This document shows positions 5,985 to 34,050 of a stretch of DNA of 34,375 bases, piece after piece. Both the position numbers and the translations under genes were made by a program. Source of the DNA: an uncultured Clostridia bacterium (GTDB lineage: Bacteria > UBA6262 > WVXT01). Each line of letters starts with the position of its first letter. The stretch's first letter is position 1. The stretch spans positions 1 through 34,375 of the forward strand of contig CAZJWT010000001.1 in the NCBI GenBank assembly GCA_964550005.1. The letters are read 5' to 3'. Under the pieces are notes generated by a model. That model ran no database searches, was not told where the DNA came from, and saw nothing but the letters and a program-made list of their open reading frames with translations.

Positions 5985-7144
5985 TTAATCCTTCTTAGCC
6001 TCTCAATTGCCTCTTTTATCCTCTTCTCATCCACCGTCAAAGAAAAGCGCACATACCCTTCTCCAGAGGGACCGAGTGCGTTGCCCGGGGTAGAGAGAAT
6101 ACCTATCTCCTCCAAAAGATTCTCCACACACTGGAGCGAGGAATAGCCTTCCGGGACCTTTGCCCAAATGTAGAATGTAGCCTCTGACCTTTTGACTCTC
6201 CAGCCAGTTTTCTCCAATCCTTCACTTAAGAGGTTGCGGCGCCTCTCGTATATACGACGCATCTCATCCACGCAGTCTTGGGCTCCATTCAAAGCCTCAA
6301 TCGATGCAGCCTGAATAGCACCAAAAACGCCAGAATCGATATTCTCCTTCACCGAGGAGAGGCCTTTGAGTATAATCCGGTTCCCACAAGCCCAACCGAT
6401 ACGCCAGCCTGTCATATTGTAAGTTTTGGATAGAGAATGAAATTCAATCCCCACTTCCTTTGCACCTGGGAGTTCCAGGAAACTTATAGGTTTCCTTCCC
6501 TCATAATATATCTCTGAATAGGCCGCATCATTTACCACAACGATATTGTATTTTCTTGCAAATTCGATTACTCTTCTGAAAAAATCTCTATTGGCACAGG
6601 CTGCAGTGGGATTGTTCGGATAGTTGATAAACACCATCTTGCTTTTTGTTGCTATTTCTTCCGGAATTGAATCCAAATCTGGCAGAAAACCATTTTCTTC
6701 CAATAAGGGCATAAAGTAGGGGGTACCTCCGGCAAAGATAGTCCCTATCTTATAAACAGGATAGGCTGGTTCCGGACAGAGAACCACGTCACCCGGATTA
6801 ACAAATGCCAGGTGAATGTGTCCAATCCCTTCCTTGGAACCGATTAGAGCATGGACTTCGTTCTCGGGATCCAATTCTACGCCAAAACGGACTTTATACC
6901 AGCGGGCAATTGCCTTACGAAATTCTAACAGTCCCGAACCAAAAGGGTATCTGTGGTATTTGGGTTCATCTATAGCCCTCTTCATAGCGTCTCTAATATG
7001 CTGAGGTGTGGGTAGGTCTGGATCCCCCACACCCAGATCTATGATATCTATTCCCCGTTGAATAGCCTGTTTTTTCTTTCGGTCAATCTCGACAAAAACG
7101 TAAGGTGGTAACTGGGATAACCTCTCGGAATAACCGAATTTCAT
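5978..7144 (-). CDS. dapL: LL-diaminopimelate aminotransferase (DapL-type class I/II aminotransferase)
   Basis: 388 aa with LPPYVFVEIDRKK and LGVGDPDLPTP at the N-terminus and PLP-lysine motif SLSKTYNMTGWRIGW. It sits between dapB and folK in a dap cluster that lacks dapD/C/E. Its start overlaps the dapB stop by 4 nt (ATGA). Confidence 0.8.
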   Translation of the reverse strand: MKFGYSERLSQLPPYVFVEIDRKKKQAIQRGIDIIDLGVGDPDLPTPQHIRDAMKRAIDEPKYHRYPFGSGLLEFRKAIARWYKVRFGVELDPENEVHALIGSKEGIGHIHLAFVNPGDVVLCPEPAYPVYKIGTIFAGGTPYFMPLLEENGFLPDLDSIPEEIATKSKMVFINYPNNPTAACANRDFFRRVIEFARKYNIVVVNDAAYSEIYYEGRKPISFLELPGAKEVGIEFHSLSKTYNMTGWRIGWACGNRIILKGLSSVKENIDSGVFGAIQAASIEALNGAQDCVDEMRRIYERRRNLLSEGLEKTGWRVKRSEATFYIWAKVPEGYSSLQCVENLLEEIGILSTPGNALGPSGEGYVRFSLTVDEKRIKEAIERLRRIKW

Positions 7145-19497: not shown

Positions 19498-20285
19498 TTT
19501 ATGATTTTGGTTCCTCCCAATTTCATCCGCTTTTCAAGAAGAGGCAACAGAGCATCTTTTTTTCGACCATCAAGGATATTTATTTCCTTTACACCTTTCC
19601 TAAGCGCCTCAGCACAGGAATCTATCTTGGGAATCATTCCTTCAGTAATGGTTCCCTTCCTTGCCAGCTTCTCAACCTCTTCTATTCTTATCTCTTTAAT
19701 TACAGACTTCTCATCTTTAGGATTTTCCAGAATGCCTGGCACATCGGTTAGGAAGAATAACCTTTCTGCTCCGATAGCAGCTGAAAACTGGGCTGCAAAG
19801 ATATCGGCATTGATGTTATAAGTCACCCCTCTTCTATCCATAGCCGTAGAAGAGATAACCGGGATGAACCCGTTATCCAAAAGGACGTACATAATTTCAG
19901 GATTTACTCTCTCCACTTCAGCCACATATCCGAGGTCGTGTCTTCCTTCTATCTTCTTCGCTTCCACTAAAAAACCATCCTTCCCTGAAATGCCCACAGC
20001 CCTCCCTCCCAAAAGATTAATCCTTCCCACTATCCTTCGGTTAATCCCTGCCAGAACCATCTCCACAATTTCCAGGCTTTCAGCATCTGTGTACCTTTGC
20101 CCTTTTACAAATCTCGGCTTCTTTCCCAAAATATTCAGTTTTTCAGTAATTTCCAGCCCGCCTCCATGAATGACGACTGGATGTTTTAGTCGTTTTGCCA
20201 GCGAGATAATATTCTTGAGGTGACTATCCATCACCGGTCCTCTCAAAAGTTTCCCGCCAATCTTTATTACTAACAACTCTTTCAC
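19494..20285 (-). CDS. argB: Acetylglutamate kinase
   Basis: 263 aa with VIKIGGK, VIHGGG and NINAD motifs. The GTG start at 20285 overlaps the comEC TGA by 4 nt (GTGA). Confidence 0.9.
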   Translation of the reverse strand: MKELLVIKIGGKLLRGPVMDSHLKNIISLAKRLKHPVVIHGGGLEITEKLNILGKKPRFVKGQRYTDAESLEIVEMVLAGINRRIVGRINLLGGRAVGISGKDGFLVEAKKIEGRHDLGYVAEVERVNPEIMYVLLDNGFIPVISSTAMDRRGVTYNINADIFAAQFSAAIGAERLFFLTDVPGILENPKDEKSVIKEIRIEEVEKLARKGTITEGMIPKIDSCAEALRKGVKEINILDGRKKDALLPLLEKRMKLGGTKIIK

Positions 20286-22630
20286 TGCTTCCCCCCTCTC
20301 ATTGGTTCAATCTGGAATGACTTCCCATCAGTTCTTATGACGATAGCACCATTATTAGAAGTAGAGAAAAATCCTATTTTATTATACTTCTCTTCCAATT
20401 TTCTAACCCGGAATTTAGTTGATATTATACCATATTTCGGCGCCACTTTATATAGAAATTTTGGAGCTACCCGGCCTCCACCATGATTGGGTATCTGCAG
20501 AATATCACTTTTAATATCTTCTCTCTCTAACTCATCCTGTACATCATAATCGATATCTCCTGTGAATAGAATTGCAAAATTTCCATAGCTCACCTTGGTA
20601 ACCAGAGAATTACTATCAATATTTTCTCTCATAATCGTGGGATTTAAGATGTGAAATCTTACAGCATTATATTCAACCTTTTCACCATAAGCTATATATT
20701 TCAAGGGAATCCTTTTCTCTCTGATAATCTGAAGGAACTCCTCAAAAGCGTCGTCATCATAATTTTGACCATTATAGTATACCCTTTTCACCTTAAATTT
20801 TTTTAGAACTGAAATCAAACCTCCTATATGGTTATAGTGGGGGTGAGTCAAAAAGATAGTATCTATCCTGGAGACGCCATTTTTCAATAAATAAGGAATT
20901 ACCACTTTCTCCCCTATATCAAATTTTCCTATTACCCCGCCCCCGTCTATCAATATGTCCTTCCTGTCAGGCAGTCTGAGGTGAATCGCATCTCCCTGTC
21001 CCACATCCAGAAAAGTAATGGTTAGTTTGTCCGAAGGGACTATTTTCAAGCCGGCTACCGAAAATATAATGAGAAGTGGGAAAAAGAGAATGAGTCTACG
21101 TACTGAACGGGAAGATTCCATTTTCGGTAGAAAAGAGAAGAAAAGATAGTAAGATAAGATAAATATGCAGGAAGGATTCACGACATATTTTACTGAGAAG
21201 GGTAACGAAGCAAAAAATCGAATAGATTGGAATAGAACTATTACAAATAACCTGTTAACTGTGTTAACCGCCTGGGCGAGCCCTAAGGAGAAAAGGCCCG
21301 CTATCGATGAGGCAAATCCCAGGGCTGTGATTACACCAACCTGAGGAACAACCACAATGTTGGAGAGTAGAGCAATTAATGAAATCTTATTGAAGTAGAA
21401 GGCAGTTATGGGATAGACACCAACCAATGCTCCAGCAGAGACTGCCAGTGAACCTAAAATGTAAGTAACGAGCTTATGAGGTTTGCTCAAACGAAAATGA
21501 CTCTGGAAATAGGGAGTGAGATAGAGAATCCCTAAAGTCGCCATAAATGAAAGCTGAAAACCCACATCAAAGAGGGTAAAGGGATTCCAGATTAAAATAA
21601 TCAGGGCAGCTAGGGTCAAGCTATTATAAAGATGTTTATCCCTATCGAGGAGGAATGCCACTAACCCGCAGATAGCCATAATTGATGCCCTTGCCGCGGA
21701 AGGAGGATTGCCGACTACCTGAGCAAATATTATGACTACCAGTATCGTTAAAAGATAGGTTACCCTCTTGGGAATCCCGATTCCCCGAAAGAACCCATAA
21801 AATATGAACAGAACCAAGCCTACATTTAGCCCGCTTACTGCAAGTATATGAAGCACTCCGGCATCAGCAAACATCTCTTGAATATCCCTGGGCAGGTCGC
21901 ACCTCTCTCCCAATATCAGTCCTGCGAGAATCGAAGATTCCAATTGGGGGAGGGTGCTCTTAATAACAAAATCTATTTTTCGTCTAATTTTTGAGATGAG
22001 CGAAGGAAAGAAGCCCATTTCTGCCTGGCCGAACCTTTCAATATCTCCACTATCATAGACAGAAAAGAGCGAATGGATATTTCGATAGCTCAAATACCTC
22101 CTATAGTCGAATAGCCCGGGATTAGCTGAAGCAGGGGGAAGGGAGAGTCTGCCTGAGAGACTCACGCGGTCTCCATAATTTATCTCGGCTGGCACGGAAG
22201 TGTAGAGAAAGACTTGCGTTTTTCCTCTTACTTCTATTTCTCTCTTATCAGTGGTTAATCTCTGGCAGGCTAAGACAAAATCGACCCTTTGCGAGGACTT
22301 ATTAGGAATTGAAACTACAACGCCTCTGAGCCGACTTCTCTCCTGAGTTGGAAAAGAGATGTAGTGGCTTATCTCGTTAGGAGGGATATGGTGAGCTCCC
22401 AGATGCCGGGCAATTCCCAAAGAGAGGAACGCCAAAAAGAAAAAGATTAAACCGATGTTTCCTGGACTTCGCTGAAGAATGAAATAGAAAACTGAAGCCA
22501 GAATAAAAAGACTTAAGAAGATTATTAGAAACCAGAAATATTTAGCTTCTATGAAGAAATTGCCGAGAAGAATTCCCAAAATATATCCGATTACAGTTAA
22601 GAGGAGTGGCGTGAAACTAAATTTCCTCAT
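20282..22630 (-). CDS. comEC: DNA internalization-related competence protein ComEC/Rec2 (N-terminal DUF4131-like region, polytopic competence domain, C-terminal metallo-beta-lactamase domain)
   Basis: 782 aa. The N-terminal TM helices are followed by an OB-like segment and about 8 further TM helices. The C-terminal domain has ITFLDVGQGDAIHL, LTHPHYNHIGG, FTGDID and IPNHGGG. Confidence 0.88.
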   Translation of the reverse strand: MRKFSFTPLLLTVIGYILGILLGNFFIEAKYFWFLIIFLSLFILASVFYFILQRSPGNIGLIFFFLAFLSLGIARHLGAHHIPPNEISHYISFPTQERSRLRGVVVSIPNKSSQRVDFVLACQRLTTDKREIEVRGKTQVFLYTSVPAEINYGDRVSLSGRLSLPPASANPGLFDYRRYLSYRNIHSLFSVYDSGDIERFGQAEMGFFPSLISKIRRKIDFVIKSTLPQLESSILAGLILGERCDLPRDIQEMFADAGVLHILAVSGLNVGLVLFIFYGFFRGIGIPKRVTYLLTILVVIIFAQVVGNPPSAARASIMAICGLVAFLLDRDKHLYNSLTLAALIILIWNPFTLFDVGFQLSFMATLGILYLTPYFQSHFRLSKPHKLVTYILGSLAVSAGALVGVYPITAFYFNKISLIALLSNIVVVPQVGVITALGFASSIAGLFSLGLAQAVNTVNRLFVIVLFQSIRFFASLPFSVKYVVNPSCIFILSYYLFFSFLPKMESSRSVRRLILFFPLLIIFSVAGLKIVPSDKLTITFLDVGQGDAIHLRLPDRKDILIDGGGVIGKFDIGEKVVIPYLLKNGVSRIDTIFLTHPHYNHIGGLISVLKKFKVKRVYYNGQNYDDDAFEEFLQIIREKRIPLKYIAYGEKVEYNAVRFHILNPTIMRENIDSNSLVTKVSYGNFAILFTGDIDYDVQDELEREDIKSDILQIPNHGGGRVAPKFLYKVAPKYGIISTKFRVRKLEEKYNKIGFFSTSNNGAIVIRTDGKSFQIEPMRGGKQ

Positions 22631-22828: not shown

Positions 22829-23782
22829 TTATTTCTCTAACATAACAGGGTTTCTTAAATTAACTATTCCTTCTGCAATAGACTCAATCACATCGCCCGG
22901 TTGGAGCCCTTCTTCAGGACCTGCTGGAGGGCTGGCTGTGGTAAACACGTCTCCAGGCTCTAAAGTCATAATATCGCTCAAGAATTCGAGGATTTCTGGT
23001 ATCTTGAAAATCAAATTCTTCGTGCTCGACTCGCACTCAACTTTGTCATTTCTCTTCCTAATCATTTTTACATTGTGTGGGTCAGGAACTTCGTCCTTTG
23101 TCACTATCCAGGGACCTATAGGACAGAAAGTGTCAAATGCCTTGCACCTTTGCTGATACATTACATGGCCTGGCTGAATCATTTCTATATCGTGAGCCGT
23201 CACATCTACAAGCATTGTATACCCAAAAATATAATCGTACGCTTTCTCTTTAGGAATATGCTTACCTTTCTTCCCAATCACTACAGTGAATTCCCACTCC
23301 TGGAAAAGACATTTGGAAGTTGTCCCTGGCCATTTCCCCCCTTTCGGTATCATGATAGGCTCATTTGGACCTATCACTGTTGATTGGGCTCTGATAAAAA
23401 AGACCGGAACCTGGGGCTTGGGATAACCTAACTGCTGACGATAGTCTTCATAATTTATGCCAATACAGACTATCTTGGGAGGTCTGGGAATGGGGGCTTT
23501 CAGTTTCACTTTTTCCAGAGGAAAGACAGCGCCCGGCACAGCGAATTTTTGCTTTTTCACATAAGTAATCATTTCTTCAGCCGCCTTGAGTGCGGGCTCA
23601 CCAGCTGCAATAAATTCGACCATGGAGATAGGAATAGTCTGGCAGGCAGTCTCTTCAGGATTCTTGACTTTCTTAACCTTAGATAAATAGCTAACACACA
23701 CTCCACGCAGGTCTATCACCCTGTTCTCCACAACCACTCCCACTCTTAACTTTCCCTTCTCTTCAAAAGTTACAAATTTCAT
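22829..23782 (-). CDS. Fumarylacetoacetate hydrolase (FAH) family protein
   Basis: 317 aa. The C-terminal catalytic region has EWEFTVVIGKKGK, GYTMLVDVTAHD and PGDVFTTASP patterns typical of FAH/HpcE-like hydrolases and decarboxylases. Confidence 0.8.
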   Translation of the reverse strand: MKFVTFEEKGKLRVGVVVENRVIDLRGVCVSYLSKVKKVKNPEETACQTIPISMVEFIAAGEPALKAAEEMITYVKKQKFAVPGAVFPLEKVKLKAPIPRPPKIVCIGINYEDYRQQLGYPKPQVPVFFIRAQSTVIGPNEPIMIPKGGKWPGTTSKCLFQEWEFTVVIGKKGKHIPKEKAYDYIFGYTMLVDVTAHDIEMIQPGHVMYQQRCKAFDTFCPIGPWIVTKDEVPDPHNVKMIRKRNDKVECESSTKNLIFKIPEILEFLSDIMTLEPGDVFTTASPPAGPEEGLQPGDVIESIAEGIVNLRNPVMLEK

Positions 23783-24028: not shown

Positions 24029-25222
24029 CTAATATTGAACTCTTACGGCTACAACTATTCTGGTCAGTGTCTCATCTATTCTCTGACGCTCCTCAAAGAA
24101 GGTGGCATCACCATAATAATTCCTTTTGCCGAACTCCCCGGCAAAATCGAAAGATACTATATTGTTAAATTTATATCCCAGCCCTCCCGTAAAGGAGACC
24201 ATCTGAAATTCTTTACTACCATAAAAGGGTTGAAAATGGAAACCATATCTTAAAGAAAGAGCATCTGACAGATAGTGCTCTGCACCAATACGAAATTCAA
24301 AGGTATCACCGTAATTAGATCCTGATTCAAATCCCGACCATTCACTAAAGATGAACTCAGCCGCTATGGTAGAAGAGATTTCGTCAACGAAATTATAAGC
24401 CACACCAAAGCCATACGATAGGGGAAATTTTAGCTCTTTCCTGCCTTCTTTTGTCGACGTAGAGTAGTTCACTTTCCATCTATCCTCGACTTTTCCTCTT
24501 GTCTTAACAATAAATCCAGCTCTAAACTCATCGGAGAAGCAGAGCATCCCTCCCAGCGTGAAATTAAGACCAGAACTCTTTGATTTGAGCTCGGTAACGG
24601 AGGCGGGAGGAGAAGCATAAATAGTGCATCTATTTTTGAGACTTCTTTCTCCATACAGAAGGTTAACAGTCCCACCCATACATAAATATGGCGTGAGCTT
24701 CCATGCTCCTCCTAAGCTATAGCCATAGAGGCTTCCTTCTCCACTTATGCTGGCAGAGCCAATTTTCTCACCCGGCGAATCTGCGTCAAAGATGGATTTC
24801 TCATGCTCGTAATGGTTGTCGTATAAGGAGACAAGTCCTAAAGCCAGCACCCATTTTCTTCTGACCGGAAAAGCAAGAGTAGCACTATTGAGTTGAAAAT
24901 AGCACTGAGAATTAAAATACGTCAATTCATCTTCTGTAATCACCTTTTCTACAACCGGCGCTATTCCCAAAGCTAATGAAAGTTCGTTCTTTTTCAAAAC
25001 CCCGAGACATGAGGGATTTACAAATATAGAAGAAGAATCGGTTGCACTGGCAATTGATGTTCCTCCCATTCCCATGCAGCGAGCCCCAATTCCAGAAATG
25101 GGATCTCCTAAGCGAGAAACTCCCAGATAAGTAAGCGCATCAACTTTTGAAGCCAGAAAACAGAGAATAGTAACTACTACAAAAACAATTCTTTCTTTGT
25201 TCACCTTTCCTTTGTAACCCAC
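24029..25222 (-). CDS. Outer-membrane beta-barrel protein, FadL/PorV-like family
   Basis: 397 aa with a signal peptide (...LASKVDA/LT). The N-terminal plug-type motif GIGARCMGMGGTSIASATDSSSIFVNPSCLG resembles the FadL/TodX/PorV G-x-GAR-x-GMGGA...NPAGL signature. It shows an alternating beta-strand pattern and a C-terminal aromatic (…VRVQY). The start codon is uncertain (GTG 25222 or GTG 25204). Confidence 0.65.
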   Translation of the reverse strand: MGYKGKVNKERIVFVVVTILCFLASKVDALTYLGVSRLGDPISGIGARCMGMGGTSIASATDSSSIFVNPSCLGVLKKNELSLALGIAPVVEKVITEDELTYFNSQCYFQLNSATLAFPVRRKWVLALGLVSLYDNHYEHEKSIFDADSPGEKIGSASISGEGSLYGYSLGGAWKLTPYLCMGGTVNLLYGERSLKNRCTIYASPPASVTELKSKSSGLNFTLGGMLCFSDEFRAGFIVKTRGKVEDRWKVNYSTSTKEGRKELKFPLSYGFGVAYNFVDEISSTIAAEFIFSEWSGFESGSNYGDTFEFRIGAEHYLSDALSLRYGFHFQPFYGSKEFQMVSFTGGLGYKFNNIVSFDFAGEFGKRNYYGDATFFEERQRIDETLTRIVVAVRVQY

Positions 25223-25246: not shown

Positions 25247-27250
25247 TCACCACTTCACATCCCATTGTAAACTGAACACATGTCTTCTGCTTCCGATTAT
25301 TTTATCTAACTCTTCTTTATTTTCCGGCCTGCTTATCCCATAATCATTGTAATAGTGTGTATTTTCATATTTCATCCAGAGGCTGGTGTTTTTAGTAATC
25401 CCTTGCGTTACCATTAAGTAGTATCTTACACCTTTGCCATAGGTCCACCAATGGAAAGGAGTCAAACCCATAGGCCATAAAAATTCAATTTCGCTCAAAG
25501 CAACTCCTGGGTCAGCCTCGAAAAAGATCAGCCTCCCTTCAAGATTCAACCTAACAGTTGGACTGTACCTGAGGTCACCAAAAATTAAGTATCCTCTATC
25601 CACTTGCTTGAGCTCATAAATACTGTTCTTTCTCTCATCCCACCTTACCTTAAACCTCACCCTGCCATCCGGATTCCAAGTAACCTGCACTCTCGTCTTC
25701 TTCCAGCTCTGGCATAAATCTCTATTTTCTACCTTTTTATCATACCAGTGGTCCCATTTCCTAAAATATATTTCCAGCTTCCTTGATACTCTCTGTCTAA
25801 CATCAAACCAGAATTCCTTATCTGTGGTTGGCATTAAATTATCCTCTCTCCAAGGATGGCGAACAGGTCTAAAATAGATTTGCACTTCCCTCTCTCTATC
25901 CTCATACTTACCACCAAGGAATATTCCATTCTCATTCCAGCCTTCATCCCTCCGTCCAACTATAGTGGTAGCACTACTATGTTCGTTATAGTAATCTGGG
26001 TCATATTTATAAATAGTCATCCATAAAGTAAAGCTGCTTAATTTGAGCATAGGCTGCATCATCCACGCCTCACCATAACCTACGCACTTAGCATATTCGG
26101 CGAAGAGATTCAATTTTCTATACCAAGTATCAAAATCGAACCCGAAAATCCTGTTTCTATTTCCTCGAAATAGATAGTATCCTTTCTCTTCCGGCGGATT
26201 AATCCCAGGGCTATATTTGCTCTCATAACCGATAAAACCAATCTGTGAATCTCTTAAAAAATTATAAGCCACTCTACCGCCAATCAGTTTCTCAGTCAAC
26301 TTGTTATTTCTCTCCAGTTCTTTATCACTAGTAACATAACCCATATTCGCTCTAATAGCAATTAAGCTCTCCTTCACAGTACCATCCGGATTCAAGGATG
26401 CATCGAGCTTCTTATTCGAATAGAAGAAATCAAAGTCGAACTGTTCTATTTTCTTTCTTATCGCCAATCCTCTGAAATAAGTATTTGGTGTTGTCCCTCC
26501 ATCTGCTGCAATACCTTTAGCTTCAATCTTTACTGATCTGGTTAATTCTATTGCCAGAGGATAATAGAAGATTAATCCCTGATTATATTGAAGCTTGTAA
26601 TCGCCAATGACTATCTTATCAGTGGAATGAACATCTTGCATTACAAACCAGTATTTGGTCAAATAGTATTTCCAGAGATTATGAAAATTAATTGTAGGTT
26701 CCGAACCGCTGTCTGACTGAGCGCCCCCGTGACGAAGGACCCAACCGGCTTCATAGTGGCTTCCATATCTTAACCTCGTGCGATTATAGAGATATGCGGG
26801 ATTTTGAAATTTAGGGTCAGCATCAAAATAAGCTTCACTATCCGGCTTATCCAGCTTAATTCTCCACCGGAAATCACCGTGGAGGGCTACGGGAATTCCT
26901 TTTAGCTCAACCCTAACATAAGGAGCTATTCCCTCAAATATCTCATCATTCACTCCTGGCACATCCTTAACTTCCTCAACATCTGTAAATCCTCTCTGTT
27001 CACGATAGATAATAATCGCCCTTGCCAGGCGAGAATCAATTAGAGGAAGCTTCAACAATTGGTCAAAAGAGACAGTATTTAAGTCGAGTGGATAGTCTTT
27101 CAAATCAGCAAGCTCTTCCTTATCCACTGCCCCAGGGAATACTGTCTCGGCTTCATCCTCTTCAAATTCGACCTGACCCACCACTGCCGCAGGCAGATTA
27201 GCCAGCAAGAGTATGTACAAAGCGAGACGAATAGCGGTAATTCTTGTCAT
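25247..27250 (-). CDS. Exported helix-hairpin-helix (ComEA-like) DNA-binding domain fused to a large predicted outer-membrane beta-barrel
   Basis: 667 aa with a signal peptide (…LPAAVVG/QVEF). A ComEA-type HhH module (LDLNTVSFDQLLKLPLIDSRLARAIIIYREQRGFTDVEEVKDVPGVNDEIFEGIAPYV) is followed by about 540 aa rich in amphipathic beta-strands and aromatic girdle residues. It ends ...FSLQWDVKW, an OMP beta-signal-like terminus. Confidence 0.6.
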   Translation of the reverse strand: MTRITAIRLALYILLLANLPAAVVGQVEFEEDEAETVFPGAVDKEELADLKDYPLDLNTVSFDQLLKLPLIDSRLARAIIIYREQRGFTDVEEVKDVPGVNDEIFEGIAPYVRVELKGIPVALHGDFRWRIKLDKPDSEAYFDADPKFQNPAYLYNRTRLRYGSHYEAGWVLRHGGAQSDSGSEPTINFHNLWKYYLTKYWFVMQDVHSTDKIVIGDYKLQYNQGLIFYYPLAIELTRSVKIEAKGIAADGGTTPNTYFRGLAIRKKIEQFDFDFFYSNKKLDASLNPDGTVKESLIAIRANMGYVTSDKELERNNKLTEKLIGGRVAYNFLRDSQIGFIGYESKYSPGINPPEEKGYYLFRGNRNRIFGFDFDTWYRKLNLFAEYAKCVGYGEAWMMQPMLKLSSFTLWMTIYKYDPDYYNEHSSATTIVGRRDEGWNENGIFLGGKYEDREREVQIYFRPVRHPWREDNLMPTTDKEFWFDVRQRVSRKLEIYFRKWDHWYDKKVENRDLCQSWKKTRVQVTWNPDGRVRFKVRWDERKNSIYELKQVDRGYLIFGDLRYSPTVRLNLEGRLIFFEADPGVALSEIEFLWPMGLTPFHWWTYGKGVRYYLMVTQGITKNTSLWMKYENTHYYNDYGISRPENKEELDKIIGSRRHVFSLQWDVKW

Positions 27251-27272
27251 CGGTACTGATCAGGCACTCTCT

Positions 27273-27502
27273 CCCCTCACCCTTTCCCTCTCCCCGGGGG
27301 GAGAGGAGAGAAATAAGAAGTCAAGCTTCCACTATCTTCGTCACCCTGCCCCGTCCCGAAACCGGAACGGGGTCGGGAAAGGGTGACCAACCACGCGTAG
27401 GGGCGACCCTTGCGGTCGCCCATTGGTCGGGCACTCTTTAGAGTGCCGTTTCTGGTCGGGGGCACCATTTACCTGTCCTGAACATAGCCGAAGGATGGTG
27501 CC
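27273..27502. repeat. Array of palindromic units between the PorV-like gene and the HhH-barrel gene
   Basis: The units are cccctcaccctttccctctccccggggggagagg (27273-27306), cttcgtcaccct[30-nt insert]aaagggtgaccaacc (27336-92), gtaggggcgacccttgcggtcgccc (27397-27421), ggtcgggcactctttagagtgccg (27425-48) and ggcaccat...atggtgcc (27461-27502). Confidence 0.88.
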
Positions 27503-27537
27503 GGTGTAAAAAAGTAGCTTGTCCCCTTTTCGCGCGA

Positions 27538-28416
27538 TTAATCTTGCTTAGTCACGCCGCCGGAGTGCAAAGAAAGAGAAAATTGGTGCTGCCCACTTAG
27601 GAAAGGATGGCTCAAGAATGCGTAATCGAATTCGAATATGTTCCAGCGAAAGCCAAAACCTGCGCTAACTCTCGCTGGGTCGTTCTCTACCCCGACCCGC
27701 AAGATAAAATTTCTACTAAGGGTAGCCTCAAAACCAGCTCTTATCTCAGGTTCAACCTTTGCTGAACTCATTGGTAGATACAAATCGAGAGAGGTAATGT
27801 AACCAGAAAGAGGCTGAAAAAAAGCCCCCACCTTAATTGTCTGGGCTAAATTTTCCGGGGAGTTACCGAGTCGGGGACCGTTCAGGTTCATTGCCATAAT
27901 CCCCAACCTGAACTTAGAACTAATATCGGCAAGAGTTCCCATATCCAGACCGAAAGCGGAAGCCTTACCATAAGTAGAATTTACGCTGGCTCCCTTAATC
28001 TTTAGACTCATAATTTTGACATTGAAACCGAAATATATCCCACTCCCCAAACTCTGCCCGCAAGAAAAAATAGTCTGACTCTCTCTATATTCTGAACACC
28101 CAAACTGTGAATATGAGAATCCAAAGGCTCCCACCTTTTTAGTAGGGATCACTCCACCAAAAAGATAATATCTCAAATCTTTTAGGCCGAAAAGCTGAGT
28201 AGTCACTCCCATGGCTTCTACTTCTTTGACCAGTTCCAATCCAGCCGGGTTCCAGTAGATAGCATTAACATCATCAGCCACACCCGTAAACGCTCCTGCC
28301 ATCCCCATTGGACGAGCCCCCGCTCCCTTCTCCTCAAAAGCCCCGTAACTGGGCGAAAGGGTGAAAAAATAGAAAAGTGAAAAGGCAAAAAGTAATAGAA
28401 AGGCTTTTCTTACCAT
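27538..28416 (-). CDS. Outer-membrane beta-barrel protein, PorV/FadL-like (UPF0164-like) family
   Basis: 292 aa with a signal peptide (…SPSYG/AFEE) and the motif GAGARPMGMAGAFTGVADDVNAIYWNPAGL. The start lies 4 nt after the stop of the CTD-bearing protein upstream. Confidence 0.65.
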   Translation of the reverse strand: MVRKAFLLLFAFSLFYFFTLSPSYGAFEEKGAGARPMGMAGAFTGVADDVNAIYWNPAGLELVKEVEAMGVTTQLFGLKDLRYYLFGGVIPTKKVGAFGFSYSQFGCSEYRESQTIFSCGQSLGSGIYFGFNVKIMSLKIKGASVNSTYGKASAFGLDMGTLADISSKFRLGIMAMNLNGPRLGNSPENLAQTIKVGAFFQPLSGYITSLDLYLPMSSAKVEPEIRAGFEATLSRNFILRVGVENDPARVSAGFGFRWNIFEFDYAFLSHPFLSGQHQFSLSLHSGGVTKQD

Positions 28417-28420
28417 ATCT

Positions 28421-29320
28421 CTATCTAAGTTTTCTTCCTACTATGATTGTTTCCGTTCCTTTGGTTACCTTTCCTGTATTTTCGTTCAGTGCCTCAATGT
28501 GACAAATATATATTCCAATTGGCACGATTGTGCCTCCAGACTCATCCGTGCCATCCCAGGTTACAGAGCCTTCCCCATCAATGTCTACCTCCTGGTCAAT
28601 CAACACTCTAACTAACTTTCCCCTGACATCAAAAATTCTTAAGGTAATTCTTGAACCATCCGGGACATTATATTTTATCTTTCCCTCAGTTGGTCTACCG
28701 CTTATATCGCTGTACGGAAAAAATGGTGAATCACTTACTTCCATTGTCTTTGTGGTAGGCTCCTCCTCGTAAACAGGTCTTGGGATTGGGAGTATACGGA
28801 CGAAAGATACATCATCAACATAAAAGGTTCTCTCTCCACAAGCTCCGGTGCCAGAAACCCAAACTCTTACATTGGCGGAGTTAGCATTTGGAGGCGCGAG
28901 AATTTCGCCTGTTGTCAGTTCCTGGTAGGAAGAACTATCGAGGGAAGGTAAAGACTCTCCTTTGTCAATAGAACTTCCGCTTCCATCATTAGAAGTATAC
29001 CAGTAGACTCTAATTGTGACTTCGCCATCTGGCTCGTTGTCATAAACCCATAGGGAGGCACCATAAGTCTCCCCGGGTGAAATTGTGATTCCCTTCTGCT
29101 GAATATATCCATAACCCGTCCCAGCATCGAAGAGTTTAGCTGCAAATGAGTCACTTCGCACAGGTGAATCTACCACACACCATTCCTTCAAACCCCACTC
29201 ATTCCAGTAGTTGGTAGTCCCGGACTCCAATCCTCCGTCAATAATTAACCCATCACCCCATGCAACGCCGACAGATAAAAAAAGAATCCCAATCGATTTT
29301 AAAATCACAAGTTTTCTCAT
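28421..29320 (-). CDS. Secreted protein: CBM4/9-like jelly-roll domain plus C-terminal FlgD-Ig/T9SS type-A sorting-like domain
   Basis: 299 aa with a signal peptide (…VGVAWG/DG). The N-terminal domain starts IIDGGLESG...NYW and ends FYVDDVSFV, a CBM_4_9-like pattern. The C-terminal ~85 aa (KIKYNVPDGSRITLRIFDVRGKLVRVL...VTWDGTDESGGTIVPIGIYICHIEA...) matches the FlgD-Ig / Por-secretion-tail pattern. Confidence 0.6.
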   Translation of the reverse strand: MRKLVILKSIGILFLSVGVAWGDGLIIDGGLESGTTNYWNEWGLKEWCVVDSPVRSDSFAAKLFDAGTGYGYIQQKGITISPGETYGASLWVYDNEPDGEVTIRVYWYTSNDGSGSSIDKGESLPSLDSSSYQELTTGEILAPPNANSANVRVWVSGTGACGERTFYVDDVSFVRILPIPRPVYEEEPTTKTMEVSDSPFFPYSDISGRPTEGKIKYNVPDGSRITLRIFDVRGKLVRVLIDQEVDIDGEGSVTWDGTDESGGTIVPIGIYICHIEALNENTGKVTKGTETIIVGRKLR

Positions 29321-29368: not shown

Positions 29369-30028
29369 CTACCACTCCTCACTTTCTTCTTGTGACATTG
29401 CTTCGTATTTGGTCAATAATAACTTCTCAATACTCTTTTTGATTCTCTCATCATAAATATAAATCTGCTTTACCCAGCTACCTCTCCCTTTTTCAGGTGG
29501 CCTCGATGGCCAGGCAATCCAGGGCCCCCTCTTACCTTCCATTATTCCACAGGAGACAGCCACCGCATTATTAAAGGTAATTTCCACATTAACTTTCCTT
29601 TTTCCAGCTCCCCTCAGCCTGAACCAATCCGTAACTTTGAAAGACACCTGTTCAAGCTTTTCTTGAGACGGCTTTCCTGTCTCAATTGCTTTCACTATGG
29701 CATCTCCTACTTCTTCTTTGAGGAACTTTATTTGAGGATAGACAATACCTCTCTTGCTAATGTATTCGGGAAACTTTAATACTGTCCTATTGTCACCCTT
29801 CATCACCTTAATTTCTCTCACCACTATACATTCATTGAGCATCACTTTAGCAACTCCAACCACTCCTTGTTCAGCCTCAACTGGCTCCACTTCAACTCTT
29901 GTAACACTGATAGTCTCCAGGGACTCCTTCTTCTTTTCTGCTCCCGCCACTGCTGAAGAGAGTATAACAATCAGCAAGGCTGCAACAAACAAACCCGCCC
30001 ATCTTCTTATAAGTTTTTTACAAACCAT
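29369..30028 (-). CDS. Exported protein with two tandem SpoVG-like domains
   Basis: 219 aa with an N-terminal signal peptide or anchor (WAGLFVAALLIVILSSAVAGA/EKK). Two segments each follow the SpoVG pattern (MxVTDVRLRxV..G..kA.AsITLD..FVVHDIRVI.G..GlFVAMPS....G.....hPI....R..I..avL..Y). They are ISVTRVEVEPVEAEQGVVGVAKVMLNECIVVREIKVMKGDNRTVLKFPEY... and FKVTDWFRLRGAGKRKVNVEITFNNAVAVSCGIMEGKRGPWIAWPSRPPEKGRGSWVKQIYIYDERIKKSIEKLLLTKYE. The assignment is by eye and needs HMM or structure confirmation. Confidence 0.5.
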   Translation of the reverse strand: MVCKKLIRRWAGLFVAALLIVILSSAVAGAEKKKESLETISVTRVEVEPVEAEQGVVGVAKVMLNECIVVREIKVMKGDNRTVLKFPEYISKRGIVYPQIKFLKEEVGDAIVKAIETGKPSQEKLEQVSFKVTDWFRLRGAGKRKVNVEITFNNAVAVSCGIMEGKRGPWIAWPSRPPEKGRGSWVKQIYIYDERIKKSIEKLLLTKYEAMSQEESEEW

Positions 30029-30111
30029 CCTTTCACTCCTTTCCAGAATCTATATCTTGGCTTTCATAAGTTGGGAATCACGAGACGTTAATCTGTTCAA
30101 CCTTATCCTTG

Positions 30112-30687
30112 TCACCAACTTTGACTATTCTTGGTTGATGGGGGACATTCGGATTTAATTCTAATGAACTCTTTGAGAAAAAATTTGGCAAGGGGGATGG
30201 AATCTATGAGGACGGAAGCTTCGTTATTCTTTTCCAATGCATGGTAGCCCCAGTTGGTGCTGCCAATTACCGTGTATCTTTCGTCTACTATGATGAGCTT
30301 ATTGTGAGTGGTTGTTGTGAGGGAGTCGAAATATACCTTGATACCAGCTTTTGAAAGCATAAATCCTCCCTCTTCTCTGTTTCTTATGGTAACTTTTTCC
30401 ACAGTGCCTTGTTCCAAAATTACTTCTACATTTACTCCTCTTTTATGAGCATCTATCAAATCTTGAACCAACTGGTTTTCCAGGCTTGAAGGATACTTTG
30501 GATAGTAGAACATTTCAAACATTACTATATAGATAGATTTTTTGGCTTGCTTTAAGAGGTTATGGACTGCTGGGTGGTATAACTTATTGGGAATCGGCTT
30601 CACATCTTTTGCCGGGAGGGCGAAAACAATCTGTAAAGATAATGAAAAGATCAAAACAGCAATTAGTATGTATCTCCTGACTTTCAT
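30112..30687 (-). CDS. Secreted phospholipase D-family protein, Nuc-like single-HKD endonuclease
   Basis: 191 aa with a signal peptide (…LQIVFA/LPAKD) and one HKD motif, HNKLIIVDERYTVIGSTNWG. Size and architecture resemble the periplasmic Nuc nuclease of IncN plasmids. A lipid substrate cannot be excluded from sequence. Confidence 0.65.
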   Translation of the reverse strand: MKVRRYILIAVLIFSLSLQIVFALPAKDVKPIPNKLYHPAVHNLLKQAKKSIYIVMFEMFYYPKYPSSLENQLVQDLIDAHKRGVNVEVILEQGTVEKVTIRNREEGGFMLSKAGIKVYFDSLTTTTHNKLIIVDERYTVIGSTNWGYHALEKNNEASVLIDSIPLAKFFLKEFIRIKSECPPSTKNSQSW

Positions 30688-30713: not shown

Positions 30714-31397
30714 TTATTTCTCGTTTTCTCTTCTGACGATGTCAACGAGTTCCAAAATATCATTGAGGTCGTAATCTGCTCCCGAATCTTTGGTGCCAAA
30801 CCTATCGCCATAGCGAGCAAAGGCAGTCTTCATTCCCATCTGCTTTGCTCCCACTACATCGCGCTCAGCCCAGTCTCCAACCATCAACGCCTCATCGGGC
30901 TTGACCTTGAGGATATCGAGTGCCATCTGGAAGGGCTTAGGGGATGGCTTTTTCGCCCCGGTATCTTCGTAAGTGAGGATGTGCTCGAAGTAGTGCTGCA
31001 ATCCCAGGGCAGAAATCCTCATCCATACGGGGAGCTTTGGAGCATCGGTAACGATTATCATCTTTATTCCCATCTTTGTTAGAGTGGTCAGGGTGAGGTG
31101 GACATGGGGATAAAGGCTCATCGTCCCTTCTTTTGCTTTGCGATACCCGATGATGCCCGAGGCGAGGATTCTGTAATCTATATGTCCAAACTCTCGCTCT
31201 AAGACTTTATCAAATATGTGCTGGTCTTCAATCCCTTCTTCCCCGTATGCTTTGTAAATTTTCTCCACCATTTCCTCTTTTGGCATCTTCAATCCAGCGT
31301 CAATCATCGCCTCTACTGCAGCTTCTACTGCCACACGCTTTACTTTCATAAAGTCCATTAAGGTGTTATCTAAGTCGAAAATAATTGCTTTAATCAT
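30714..31397 (-). CDS. HAD-superfamily hydrolase (subfamily IA, archaeal-type)
   Basis: Start trimmed to ATG 31397 (MIKAIIFDLDNTLMDF), which has a GAGGGG RBS. The track's upstream 10 codons read through a REP element. It has motif I DLDNT, motif II VTDAP, K at AKKPSP and motif IV VGDWAERDV. No signal peptide. Confidence 0.8.
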   Translation of the reverse strand: MIKAIIFDLDNTLMDFMKVKRVAVEAAVEAMIDAGLKMPKEEMVEKIYKAYGEEGIEDQHIFDKVLEREFGHIDYRILASGIIGYRKAKEGTMSLYPHVHLTLTTLTKMGIKMIIVTDAPKLPVWMRISALGLQHYFEHILTYEDTGAKKPSPKPFQMALDILKVKPDEALMVGDWAERDVVGAKQMGMKTAFARYGDRFGTKDSGADYDLNDILELVDIVRRENEK

Positions 31398-31409
31398 TTT
31401 AAACCCCTC

Positions 31410-31455
31410 GGACGACGACCCCGCCAAAGCGGGGTAAACTGCGTGTCGTCCCTAC
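31410..31455 (-). repeat. 46-nt two-stem REP unit (TAAACTGCGT family)
   Basis: ggacgacgaccccgccaaagcggggtaaactgcgtgtcgtccctac aligns position for position with 19416-61. Confidence 0.9.
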
Positions 31456-31760: not shown

Positions 31761-33014
31761 CTAAAAATAGCCGGGCTCTACAAATCCCGCTTCAGTTCCT
31801 TCAGGGGTCAATCTCAGGGAGCCGAACTGGATTGTTCTAATCTTCTCCTTCTCTCTTACTGGAGTAAATATTCTTATTCTTCTTCCTTTATAATCTATTC
31901 TATCAATAATTCCTATCCCCAGAACTTCACCCAGCGAATCCAGAAGTCCTATAAGTAGGTTCTTTTCATTACCAGCAATGATATTTCTTAGATTGGAAGC
32001 TCCTGCTTCCCTCTTTACTATAATGGATTCTTCCTCAGACAATGGCTCCTCTGTTACCACGAAAACTCCTTCCCAACCTGAAAGTCTCTCCGCCCAAAGA
32101 TACTGGATACCTTCCAATTTGATTTCTTTACCCGTTTTGAAATAGGCACGGTCTGTTTGAACTTCATCCAGGTCCAGTTCTATATAACCGGCTTCTTTGA
32201 AATACTTTTTATACATCGTTTCGCGTAGCCCCTTCCTCTCCTCGTGGTTTCTCGGCAAGGGACCCTTGCTAACAAGTAAGTGGACGATTTTCTCCCGGGG
32301 ATAATTTTTGACCAGATGTTCCAGCTCGTCGCCTCTCTGGAGCAAAATGATTGCATCCGGGCTCAACATCTCTATTTCTGAGCGGTGGAGAGCACGGGCT
32401 TTCTCTCCCTGCACCCAGCCAGGTGTATCAATGATAAGTATATCGGCAAGAGTTAGTCCGCAGTCAACTAATTTTTTGAGCCCAACGAGTGAAGGAAGAA
32501 AATGGAAGGCAGGAGAGTTCGAGCCGGTAAAATAGAGGGCGGTTGGCTCTACTTCACTCGGAAAGACTATCTGCCTGTCTAAAACTGCCAGCCCTATTGT
32601 TCCCGGCGGACCGATGTCGCTCTGACCTGTATCACAATCGAGAATTCCTACTCTTAATCCGTGAGTCAGAAGTCTATTGGCTAAATAAGTCGAAAAGAAA
32701 GTCTTTCCAGTGTCTATCTCTCCCAAAATTAGAATTACCCTCGCTCCCTGTTTACTTAACTGCCCAGCTAACCTATCCCAGGGATCGGGAATCGTGCGCT
32801 CGGATAGGTGTTCTCTTTCTCCACCCTCCTCAAAATCTAAGGTCAATTCACCATCTACTATCGTCTCTACTGGTATAGACTTTCCCCTCGGAATCGTAAC
32901 TTGGTCAGGATTTTCCAGAGTTTTTGCTACTGCCTCGAACTTACCTTTATTAATTTTAAGGAGGCAGGGGCCCTTAAATAAGTAGATGTTTCCTTTATTC
33001 AATTTCAAATTCAT
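31761..33014 (-). CDS. Clp1/Grc3-family polynucleotide 5'-hydroxyl kinase homologue
   Basis: Start trimmed to ATG 33014 (MNLKLNKG...), because the 28 upstream codons of the track ORF are repeat-derived. P-loop GEIDTGKTF is followed by ILDCDTGQSDIGPPGTIG (the Clp1 DxDxGQ motif) and IIDTPGW. The N- and C-terminal beta domains resemble archaeal Clp1. Confidence 0.65.
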   Translation of the reverse strand: MNLKLNKGNIYLFKGPCLLKINKGKFEAVAKTLENPDQVTIPRGKSIPVETIVDGELTLDFEEGGEREHLSERTIPDPWDRLAGQLSKQGARVILILGEIDTGKTFFSTYLANRLLTHGLRVGILDCDTGQSDIGPPGTIGLAVLDRQIVFPSEVEPTALYFTGSNSPAFHFLPSLVGLKKLVDCGLTLADILIIDTPGWVQGEKARALHRSEIEMLSPDAIILLQRGDELEHLVKNYPREKIVHLLVSKGPLPRNHEERKGLRETMYKKYFKEAGYIELDLDEVQTDRAYFKTGKEIKLEGIQYLWAERLSGWEGVFVVTEEPLSEEESIIVKREAGASNLRNIIAGNEKNLLIGLLDSLGEVLGIGIIDRIDYKGRRIRIFTPVREKEKIRTIQFGSLRLTPEGTEAGFVEPGYF

Positions 33015-33045
33015 GATGGTTGCGGCAATTCTAAAGCAGAGAGTT

Positions 33046-33126
33046 GAGCAACCCTGAAGGTCACCCCTACGCCACCTGAGATTTTGGGCGGCGGTCAAAG
33101 CAAAAAATCACTCTGACCCCTTTTTT
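33046..33126. repeat. Decayed REP head plus two short shared modules
   Basis: gagcaaccctgaaggtcacccctac carries the ctac head with a weak stem. gagattttgggcggcggtcaaagcaaaaaatc resembles 9180-9213. caaaaaatcactctgacccctttttt resembles the reverse complement of 5461-85. Confidence 0.65.
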
Positions 33127-33133
33127 ACCCATT

Positions 33134-33997
33134 TTATTTCTTTAAATATTTTCCTATCAATAGGTCGAGTTTCCTGGCTGTTCTTTTGTTTATTGCCCAC
33201 TTCCGTGTCTGAATTGCATAAGCGAGAGCTGAAGCACATTCGCATTTCCTCTCGCGTCCTAACCTGGGAATGGCAGTCTTGATTAACTTCTTCACATTCT
33301 CAATATTGGCCAGGAGATTCCCGATGACCCTTTCCACGCTGACCTCTTCACCTTCTTTCCATACATCGTAGTCTGTAACTAACCCTAAAGTAGCATAACA
33401 GATTTCTGCTTCCCGAGCCAGTTTTGCCTCGGGGAGATTGCTCATTCCAATAATAGAAAATCCTAAAGAGCGGAAGACTTTAGATTCTGCTTTGGTGGAA
33501 AATTGGGGCCCCTCGATACAGACATATGTGCCACCCAGGTGGACTGAAAGCCCCAAGTCTTTTGCTACTTGATAGAGAATTCGGCTCAATTCAAGGCAGT
33601 AGGGATTGGCAAAGCCGATGTGGGCAACAATGCCCTCTCCAAAGAAGGTATAAGGTCTCTGGCGAGTGCGGTCAAATAGTTGGTCGGGAATTACTATATC
33701 TCTGGGTTTTAACTCTTCCTTGAGGCTGCCGCATGCTGAAATAGAAATTATCTGTTCTACCCCTAAACTCTTTAGAGCATAGATGTTGGCTCTGGAATTA
33801 AGCTCTGAAGGCATTATAAAATGTCCTCTGCCATGTCGGGGCAGAAAGGCAACAGGAATCCCTCCCAGATTACCAATGACAATTTTATCAGAAGGGTCGC
33901 CAAAGGGAGTCCTTATTTTCTCTCTGCGTATATCTGTAATTCCCTCGACGTCATAGATGCCACTGCCTCCTATTACTCCAATTTTAACTTGTTGCAT
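33134..33997 (-). CDS. mtnP: S-methyl-5'-thioadenosine phosphorylase
   Basis: ATG at 33997 (MQQVKIGVIGGSGIY) is preceded by AGGAGG. Motifs FLPRHGRGH, ISACGSL, EGPQFSTKAES and GMSNLPEAKLAREAE are typical of MTAP/PNP family 2. Confidence 0.88.
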   Translation of the reverse strand: MQQVKIGVIGGSGIYDVEGITDIRREKIRTPFGDPSDKIVIGNLGGIPVAFLPRHGRGHFIMPSELNSRANIYALKSLGVEQIISISACGSLKEELKPRDIVIPDQLFDRTRQRPYTFFGEGIVAHIGFANPYCLELSRILYQVAKDLGLSVHLGGTYVCIEGPQFSTKAESKVFRSLGFSIIGMSNLPEAKLAREAEICYATLGLVTDYDVWKEGEEVSVERVIGNLLANIENVKKLIKTAIPRLGRERKCECASALAYAIQTRKWAINKRTARKLDLLIGKYLKK

Positions 33998-34050
33998 TAT
34001 CTTACCTCCTTGATACGACACTCTGAAGAGTGACCGAACTACCTGTTTTT

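Follow-up and report, generated by a model that had tools for sequence, protein, structure and literature searches.

A duplicated SpoVG fold placed behind a predicted signal peptide was found in a 34,375-nucleotide (nt) stretch of DNA labelled as an uncultured Clostridia bacterium (contig CAZJWT010000001.1, positions 1 to 34,375; hereafter the window). The gene at 29369-30028 on the minus strand encodes a protein of 219 amino acids, in which two SpoVG domains are arranged in tandem, and we hold with high confidence that the protein combines this architecture with export. It belongs to a large family with a common layout and is not a one-off. The family is widespread and undescribed; the domain as such is known, whereas its architecture and its predicted compartment are new. 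The features of the gene and its product are as follows, all on the minus strand (AF2, AlphaFold2; pI, isoelectric point):

29369-30028, minus strand: tandem-SpoVG gene, 219 amino acids plus stop codon (open reading frame listing)
30036-30040, minus strand: Shine-Dalgarno sequence AGGAG, with the ATG 7 nt further on (sequence reading)
29939-30028, minus strand: signal peptide, residues 1-30, predicted cleavage A30/E31 (sequence and homologue conservation)
29675-29911, minus strand: SpoVG domain 1, residues ~40-118 (Pfam on the domain alone, phmmer 40-116, AF2)
29642-29674, minus strand: conserved linker between the domains, residues 119-129, which includes part of TGKPS
29372-29641, minus strand: SpoVG domain 2, residues ~130-219, pI 9.3 (Pfam on the domain alone, family profile, hhalign)

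Internal duplication of the SpoVG domain

The first-pass annotation, made from the sequence alone, had noticed two segments following the SpoVG pattern, and the profile searches bear this out. Compared with the Pfam family SpoVG (PF04026, gathering cut-off 29.6 bits), the full-length protein was matched in two stretches with 57.9 bits (E=1.2e-15). Scanned alone, as the annotation had proposed, residues 40-124 reached 39.9 bits (E=4.7e-10) and residues 125-219 reached 22.3 bits (E=1.5e-4), the latter value lying below the gathering cut-off. All of the 38 diverse sequences in the domain-2 family profile matched PF04026 individually (best 2e-25), and the profile itself found the SpoVG structures 2i9x, 2i9z and 2ia9 in the PDB at E=6e-11 to 6e-9, with the next match at E>0.1. 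An hhalign comparison of the domain-1 and domain-2 family profiles gave a probability of 98.3% (E=2e-14, 62 columns). In a single-sequence phmmer search of the PDB, weak SpoVG matches (E~0.04; 2i9x, 2i9z) were obtained on domain 1 (residues 40-116). The antibody matches of domain 2 in the same search were spurious; the domain-2 profile finds SpoVG at E=6e-11.

The AF2 model, based on a 39-sequence alignment, has a mean predicted local distance difference test score (pLDDT) of 82 and a predicted template modelling score (pTM) of 0.74. It starts with a helix (residues 2-23) and a low-confidence stretch (24-35), after which two modules of sheet plus helix follow (42-117 and 130-218; pLDDT about 85-95). 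Within domain 1, the strands lie between residues 42 and 102 and are followed by a helix at 105-117. The structure comparison suggested earlier was also in favour of the duplication, since Foldseek against the PDB returned a probability of 1.0 for SpoVG structures only (2i9x, 2ia9 and 2i9z; target-normalised template modelling score (TM) 0.66-0.73, the domain aligned in each match being unspecified in the output) and a probability of 0.08 for the next-best match. Altogether, the SpoVG domain is duplicated internally in one chain, at a level well above anything expected by chance.

The linker between the domains is conserved and about 12 residues long, with T117, G118 and P120 nearly invariant in the homologue alignments. 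A pTM of 0.74 despite about 38 disordered N-terminal residues suggests that the two modelled domains are held in a fixed mutual arrangement. SpoVG crystal entries contain 2-6 chains, and the SpoVG of S. aureus runs as a complex of 55-60 kDa (PMC3688583). Since canonical SpoVG is built from separate chains, the natural reading of the tandem protein is a covalent pseudo-dimer, and the model is probably to be understood as such a fusion of a fold that is normally oligomeric.

Gene start and signal peptide

The ATG at 30028 is the first start codon downstream of an in-frame stop. The earlier statement that it is the only in-frame start needs correcting in a minor respect: further ATG codons lie within the frame at Met63 and Met76, and a start at either of these would truncate domain 1. 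The N-terminus shows the n/h/c layout of a Sec-type signal peptide as read from the sequence, with an n-region MVCKKLIRRW of net charge +4, a hydrophobic h-region AGLFVAALLIVILSS of about 15-19 residues and a c-region AVAGA/EKK carrying alanine at -3 and -1. The hydrophobic N-terminus is kept in 67 close homologues, and the small residues at -3 and -1 are conserved across homologues. The signal or anchor segment ending in AVAGA/EKK, described in the first-pass annotation, was accordingly recovered as a conserved element. The concern raised there, that the hydrophobic N-terminus might be the artefact of a wrong start, was ruled out by the Shine-Dalgarno sequence, the conserved N-terminus and the family-wide signal peptides. 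The protein is therefore predicted to be exported across the inner membrane, and the relocation of a duplicated SpoVG fold to the envelope, which had been called unusual, is supported, with export as predicted from these features.

Family size, conservation and charge

A word-indexed search yielded 67 homologues, mostly of 216-222 amino acids and drawn from many metagenomes, and where the source databases name them at all they are called only "SpoVG family protein". A second word-indexed search with a diverse alignment returned mostly known close relatives and two new proteins, P0198 and P0212 (P-numbers denote homologous proteins, L-numbers related loci). An exhaustive profile search of 1.84 billion cluster representatives (50% identity) yielded 532 matches with E<=0.001, of which at least 168 had E<1e-10. 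Among the best 150 matches, nearly all have 185-230 amino acids and are covered in both domains. The homologue search that had been proposed for the layout of a signal peptide plus two SpoVG domains thus led to a large family, the gene neighbours of which were compared. A handful of longer members, of ~340-397 amino acids with two matched stretches, comprise in effect four SpoVG domains, with a signal peptide in front (L015 2917-4089; P0068, P0070, P0073, P0084, P0126 and P0137), and in two loci two tandem-SpoVG paralogues stand side by side (L064 5852-7326; L065 3428-4907).

Signal-peptide features were recognised in 106 of 122 diverse full-length members with a simple rule that asks for a basic n-region, a hydrophobic core and an AxA-like site. 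Most of the remaining 16 fail on basic residues alone, and some look N-terminally truncated. The median length ahead of domain 1 is 27 amino acids, and in 113/122 members the hydrophobic core is succeeded by a cleavage motif of the AxA type. Lipobox-like motifs occur in four family members, one of which (P0214, LAGC) has a classical lipoprotein signal. The mature proteins are basic, with a median pI of 9.5 and 95% of them above 8. The window protein is split in this respect between a basic domain 2 (pI 9.3) and an acidic domain 1 (pI 5.6). Characteristic motifs of the family are FPEY and YPQ in domain 1, TGKPS in the linker and G-x-W-x-x-WP in domain 2.

A full-text literature search for secreted, tandem or periplasmic SpoVG found no relevant paper. 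In phage and plasmid collections tblastn gave no tandem-SpoVG match, and the PADLOC models gave no match for the SpoVG protein or for the CBM protein, the PorV-like barrel, the helix-hairpin-helix (HhH) barrel and the Clp1-type protein encoded near it (see below). The neighbouring PLD protein showed only generic DrmC-type PLD matches of about 50 bits in PADLOC, and a PHROG scan of the tandem-SpoVG protein returned one marginal match of unknown function. Based on these results, an origin from a mobile element or a defence system was rejected.

Residues for nucleic-acid binding

For DNA binding, canonical SpoVG depends on a doublet of basic residues just behind MPS (K50-R51 in S. aureus; Jutras et al., PMC3688583), and residues of the C-terminal helix set its specificity (PMC3688583). 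In a profile alignment, the doublet aligns with WP[SA]-[RK]-[KR] in domain 2 of the tandem proteins. Position 176 is arginine or lysine in 66 of the 122 members and position 177 is lysine or arginine in 90. At least one basic residue of the doublet is found in 108/122 members and the full doublet in 57/122. The window protein reads WPS-R176-P177 and so keeps one of the two residues, and further basic residues follow at K180 and R182. Together with the basic pI of the mature proteins, this partly kept site makes nucleic-acid binding by the tandem protein plausible.

Gene neighbourhood in the window

All substantial genes of the window (about 28, with overlapped plus-strand open reading frames left out) lie on the minus strand. 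The genes around the tandem-SpoVG gene are listed in the order of transcription:

33134-34021, minus strand: PNP_UDP_1 nucleoside phosphorylase (Pfam)
31761-33098, minus strand: Clp1-type P-loop protein (CLP1_P, 129 bits)
30714-31427, minus strand: HAD hydrolase (Pfam)
30112-30687, minus strand: exported single-HKD PLD-family (Nuc/NucT-like) nuclease candidate (PLDc_2, 87.2 bits)
28421-29320, minus strand: secreted CBM_4_9 protein (31.6 bits) with a C-terminal Ig domain resembling FlgD_ig and the sorting domains of the type IX secretion system
27538-28416, minus strand: PorV/PorQ-like outer-membrane beta-barrel (NCBIfam PorV_fam, 80.7 bits, cut-off 90)
25247-27250, minus strand: protein with signal peptide, ComEA-type HHH_3 domain (48.7 bits) and ~24-strand outer-membrane barrel (AF2)
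24029-25222, minus strand: FadL/Toluene_X-like outer-membrane barrel (Toluene_X, 42.6 bits), last gene of the putative operon
22829-23782, minus strand: FAA hydrolase (Pfam)
20282-22630, minus strand: ComEC with DUF4131, Competence and metallo-beta-lactamase domains (Pfam), starting some 1.4 kb beyond the FadL-like gene and associated with the module by gene context only

The genes from the PLD to the FadL-like barrel are likely one operon, as judged from their arrangement. The intergenic gaps amount to 4-83 nt, except for 287 nt between the PorV-like and the HhH-barrel genes. The PLD neighbour, which had been described as a secreted Nuc-like protein directly upstream of the tandem-SpoVG gene, was found as such by its PLDc_2 match at 30112-30687 and its own signal peptide, and its HxKxxxxD motif reads HNKLIIVD in the translation. 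Its NCBIfam matches include NucT and DrmC-type models, all of them far below the equivalog cut-offs (52 vs 211 bits). The sorting-like tail of the CBM protein reaches 26.3 bits for FlgD_ig (cut-off 27) and E=0.23 for Por_Secre_tail.

The 287-nt gap (27251-27537) is a GC-rich, hairpin-packed stretch that occurs as a single copy in the window. Since the corresponding gap comprises only 24 nt in the syntenic locus L002, it is a strain-specific insertion, such as an element resembling a repetitive extragenic palindrome or a miniature inverted-repeat transposable element, or a structured RNA. An Rfam scan of the window, this stretch included, gave no matches, and promoter and terminator scans of the window gave counts equal to the level of shuffled sequences.

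For the 667-amino-acid HhH protein, the AF2 model (pLDDT 77.5, pTM 0.73) shows a signal peptide followed by an acidic linker without ordered structure, then the helical HhH part and ~24 strands. Foldseek matched it to large outer-membrane barrels only (PapC/FimD ushers, TonB-dependent receptors and AlgE), and since the TM values are only 0.3-0.4, it is regarded as a generic large barrel and not as a member of the matched families. Relatives of 790-830 amino acids bear extra HhH/T2SSK_1st domains. A possible role of this protein (25247-27250) is that of a DNA conduit in the outer membrane which carries a DNA-binding domain of its own on the periplasmic side.

The rest of the window consists of ordinary chromosomal biosynthesis genes for NAD, pantothenate, folate, lysine and arginine. 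A block of Clp1, HAD, two PNP_UDP_1, PhoU-like and PHO4 genes, conserved in the window lineage, immediately precedes the PLD/SpoVG module. The Clp1 family is better known as a eukaryotic and archaeal polynucleotide kinase, and the gene content of the block may point to an island for the salvage of nucleic acids or phosphate.

Related loci

The lineage of the window comprises loci at 57-99% identity. In every locus of sufficient length (>15 loci), the order of PLD, tandem SpoVG, CBM protein, PorV-like barrel, HhH barrel and FadL-like barrel is conserved, flanked by ComEC downstream and by PHO4, PhoU-like, PNP, PNP, Clp1 and HAD genes upstream. The synteny with ComEC was observed in L002, L007, L012, L033, L052, L053 and L062, and in L002 the PLD-SpoVG pair is intact despite the insertion of AbiEii and DUF3800 genes just upstream. 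The FadL-like gene is syntenic both in this lineage and in L016/L024/L070. The most regular companion of this subfamily is a PorV-like gene, which is adjacent or one gene off both in the lineage of the window and in four or more divergent sub-lineages (L001/L004/L005; L015-L017/L070; L064/L065; L067).

Three classes of context can be distinguished, and signal peptides are seen in all of them alike. Class A is an outer-membrane module present in several divergent sub-lineages, which are 35-52% identical to the query sequence:

L001/L004/L005: giant fn3/LTD/CHU_C surface protein, PorV-like barrel, tandem SpoVG, LTD protein, fusion of 2xHHH_3 with a PorV-like barrel
L015-L017/L024/L070, first part: PorV-like barrel, four-domain SpoVG, polytopic membrane protein, CBM+FlgD_ig protein
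L015-L017/L024/L070, continued: PorV-like+HHH_3+TPR protein, HHH_3+large barrel, FadL-like barrel, LTD+CHU_C protein, PorV-like barrel
L064/L065: PorV-like barrel, two successive tandem-SpoVG paralogues, CBM protein
L067: PorV-like barrel, tandem SpoVG, CBM protein, HhH-PorV fusion, HhH barrel

In class B, found on Endomicrobia-type contigs, the order is prs, L25 (ctc), pth, thrS, infC, (rpmI), tandem SpoVG, ddl and mfd (L006, gene 5655-6284; L019, L023, L081 and L088-L090; adjoining mfd: L020-L022, L078 and L084). The succession prs-ctc-pth...mfd is that of the spoVG gene neighbourhood in Bacillus, and this resemblance suggests that the exported form arose in place from a canonical spoVG at the ancestral locus. 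Class C comprises miscellaneous housekeeping contexts (L018, L025-L027, L072, L085-L087 and L093-L103).

The LTD protein of L016 reaches 22.9 bits against CHU_C (cut-off 27). Just downstream of the SpoVG gene in L015-L017/L024/L070, a polytopic membrane protein of ~260 amino acids without a Pfam match is encoded, which is ~90% identical among these loci. As a universal partner it was rejected, since it occurs only in some loci and beyond those distantly in L073 and L099, and the 285-amino-acid protein beside P0212 is unrelated to it. The NCBI labels of the window lineage read "bacterium", "Clostridia bacterium" and "Firmicutes bacterium", and those of other relatives Endomicrobiia, Elusimicrobiota, Ignavibacteria and Caldiserica. 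Since metagenome-assembled genomes (MAGs) labelled Caldiserica, Elusimicrobia and "bacterium" share the ~90% identical membrane protein, either the labels are unreliable or the block has moved recently.

Pairs of a secreted sorting-tail protein (an Ig domain resembling FlgD_ig, CHU_C or Por_Secre_tail at the C-terminus of CBM, LTD or giant fn3 arrays) and, next to it, a PorV-like barrel recur in these loci (L016 2064-4450 and 7808-9504; L004 7853-13176; window 27538-29320), in MAGs labelled Elusimicrobiota, Endomicrobiia, Caldiserica and Ignavibacteria. By its gene content such a pair looks like a self-contained cargo-plus-anchor unit outside Bacteroidota.

Proposed function

We tentatively propose that the tandem-SpoVG protein is a periplasmic nucleic-acid-binding pseudo-dimer that aids the capture or uptake of extracellular DNA. 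Following Sec export and removal of the signal peptide of ~30 residues, the mature protein would consist of two SpoVG domains and a short linker, and its default destination in a double-membraned cell would be the periplasm. There, its basic surface may bind nucleic acid without strong sequence preference, as canonical SpoVG binds in the cytoplasm. The protein would cooperate with the exported PLD nuclease, the HhH domains on barrels and the PorV-like and FadL-like barrels in capturing, holding and processing extracellular DNA arriving in the envelope, either as a ComEA-like periplasmic holder or ratchet of DNA or by presenting DNA to the nuclease. The DNA might serve as a source of phosphorus and nucleosides (PHO4, PhoU-like protein, two nucleoside phosphorylases, Clp1-type kinase and HAD hydrolase being encoded upstream) or as a substrate for ComEC-dependent uptake and transformation (ComEC being encoded downstream).

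The main argument for a DNA-related role is that two folds of DNA-binding type, SpoVG and HHH_3, are met again and again, along with LTD domains, among the exported or outer-membrane proteins of a single module in divergent lineages. Fusions of HHH_3 and barrels were observed in the divergent module loci L004/L005/L067 (two HhH with PorV-like) and L016/L024/L070, and LTD domains are present in partner proteins of the module. Several observations weigh against this proposal. The tightest conserved partners, i.e. the PorV-like barrel and the sorting-tail protein, need not involve DNA. The HhH fold is not always DNA-binding, and the HhH domains of the module also match PsbU and T2SSK weakly. The adjacency of PLD and ComEC is confined to the window lineage, where an FAA-hydrolase gene and gaps of ~200-250 nt stand before ComEC. 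The window protein retains only one residue of the doublet (R176-P177), and its domain 1, acidic at pI 5.6, has Y89-I90 at the doublet position, with basic K92-R93 following two residues later. Many members, moreover, occur in unrelated housekeeping contexts or in classical spoVG neighbourhoods, so that a broader function in the envelope may apply to the entire family.

The PorV-like gene that is kept beside the tandem-SpoVG gene, in relatives of the window and in four or more divergent sub-lineages alike, could also be explained if the protein were a periplasmic accessory (chaperone, adaptor or plug) for surface display by PorV-like barrels and sorting tails, the fold being reused for protein contacts and binding no nucleic acid. 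The pairing of FlgD_ig-, CHU_C- or Por_Secre_tail-like proteins with PorV-like barrels and the imperfect conservation of the DNA-binding doublet agree with this explanation, which we consider rather unlikely, as many members in the classical spoVG neighbourhood or in miscellaneous contexts have no PorV-like gene nearby, the family is basic (median pI 9.5) with a basic doublet residue in 108/122 members, and HhH_3 domains recur in the same modules. Canonical spoVG is loosely linked to septation and cell-envelope phenotypes, and a general envelope binder of another polyanion or wall component (lipopolysaccharide, phospholipid, peptidoglycan precursor or capsule) would continue this link. It would fit the basic pI, the lack of a common theme among the broad family contexts and the position of the Endomicrobia-type gene between infC/rpmI and ddl-mfd, adjoining a peptidoglycan gene. 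However, the gene order near ddl may be mere inherited synteny, and no SpoVG is known to bind such ligands, DNA/RNA binding being the sole biochemical activity on record (PMC3688583; PMC11086051). This makes such a binder improbable.

Two further explanations are narrower. In the window lineage, the protein might act in the periplasm on the adjacent PLD/Nuc nuclease, regulating or inhibiting the enzyme or giving protection from it, instead of being a DNA receptor, consistent with a pair that is kept across relatives of 57-99% identity and that withstood the insertion of AbiEii and DUF3800 genes in L002. Since no PLD gene stands beside homologues in other lineages, nuclease regulation cannot be the core function of the family, and even for the window lineage it seems very improbable. 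The least credible explanation is an uncleaved inner-membrane anchor, by which the SpoVG domains would stay in the cytoplasm as a nucleic-acid-binding regulator. The h-region of the window protein is indeed fairly long (about 15-19 residues), and some homologues stand at the genomic position of the classical cytoplasmic spoVG. Against this, KK..RR precedes the hydrophobic segment, so that the positive-inside rule puts the C-terminal part outside, AxA-type motifs are found in 113/122 members and lipobox-like ones in four, P0214 among them, and the neighbours are all exported or outer-membrane proteins.

Returning to the periplasmic DNA binder, a further-reaching version of it joins the separate observations and is quite unlikely in its entirety. 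Here, the tandem-SpoVG protein would be the soluble periplasmic DNA receptor of an unrecognised, pilus-independent DNA-import apparatus in uncultivated double-membraned bacteria. The HhH-fused ~24-strand outer-membrane barrel would act as the DNA conduit, CBM/LTD surface proteins held by PorV-like barrels would catch the DNA, and the PLD nuclease would process it ahead of ComEC or of nutrient salvage. The export of SpoVG would date from early in these lineages, when the gene was duplicated at its ancestral locus and acquired a signal peptide. Altogether, the gene contexts are suggestive of a link between the exported tandem-SpoVG family and the handling of extracellular DNA at the envelope.

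Significance

To our knowledge, SpoVG has been described solely as a small regulator that binds DNA and RNA in the cytoplasm and the mechanism of which is still debated. The present family points to a second, envelope-located life of this fold, which is duplicated in the 122 full-length members examined and, as predicted, nearly always sent across the inner membrane. If periplasmic DNA binding holds true, the family would represent a new class of exported DNA-binding protein beside ComEA, and the HhH-fused, PorV-like and FadL-like barrels would be candidates for an extracellular-DNA route in Elusimicrobiota-like and other uncultivated lineages. If the proteins do not bind DNA, they would be a clear case of a nucleic-acid-binding fold reused for an envelope function.

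Comparison with known systems

With canonical SpoVG (B. subtilis, S. aureus/S. epidermidis, L. monocytogenes and B. burgdorferi), both halves of the window protein share the domain family and the fold. The xVTDxxxR motif of the N-terminal strand is recognisable in domain 2, where the PS-[KR][KR] site is partly kept, and some exported homologues keep the prs-ctc-pth...mfd neighbourhood. While canonical SpoVG is a single cytoplasmic domain of ~95-105 amino acids without a signal peptide, the window protein comprises two diverged, fused copies and a secretion signal, and it is set apart further by the motifs FPEY (domain 1) and W-x-x-WP (domain 2). Compared to the equivalog model NF009749 it reaches 49.8 bits (cut-off 108) and is therefore not an equivalog. 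The canonical protein assembles from separate chains and acts as a regulator by site-specific binding of DNA or RNA (PMC3688583).

ComEA may be likened to the tandem-SpoVG protein in proposed role and compartment, as an exported, basic and non-specific DNA binder between the outer-membrane step and ComEC. The HhH_3 domain type of ComEA occurs in the tandem-SpoVG gene module, and ComEC is encoded nearby in the window lineage. However, the HhH fold of ComEA is wholly different from the SpoVG fold. Since the HHH families of Pfam gave no match to the tandem-SpoVG protein at E<=1, HHH_3 being found in the barrel protein 25247-27250 instead, the protein lacks an HhH domain and is no ComEA. With the Nuc/NucT-type PLD nucleases, the neighbouring PLD protein shares the single HKD motif and the signal peptide, although it scores far below the equivalog cut-offs.

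For Riemerella anatipestifer, a pilus-independent DNA uptake with genes near ComEC RS04895 has been proposed, in a model that its authors call speculative (PMC8459023). The set includes the outer-membrane barrel RA0C_RS04915, the surface protein RS04920 and the periplasmic HhH protein RS02645 (PMC8459023), and it is without a SpoVG-domain protein. What it shares with the module described here is the proposed logic, namely the combination of a surface protein, an outer-membrane barrel and a (here putative) exported DNA-binding protein near ComEC.

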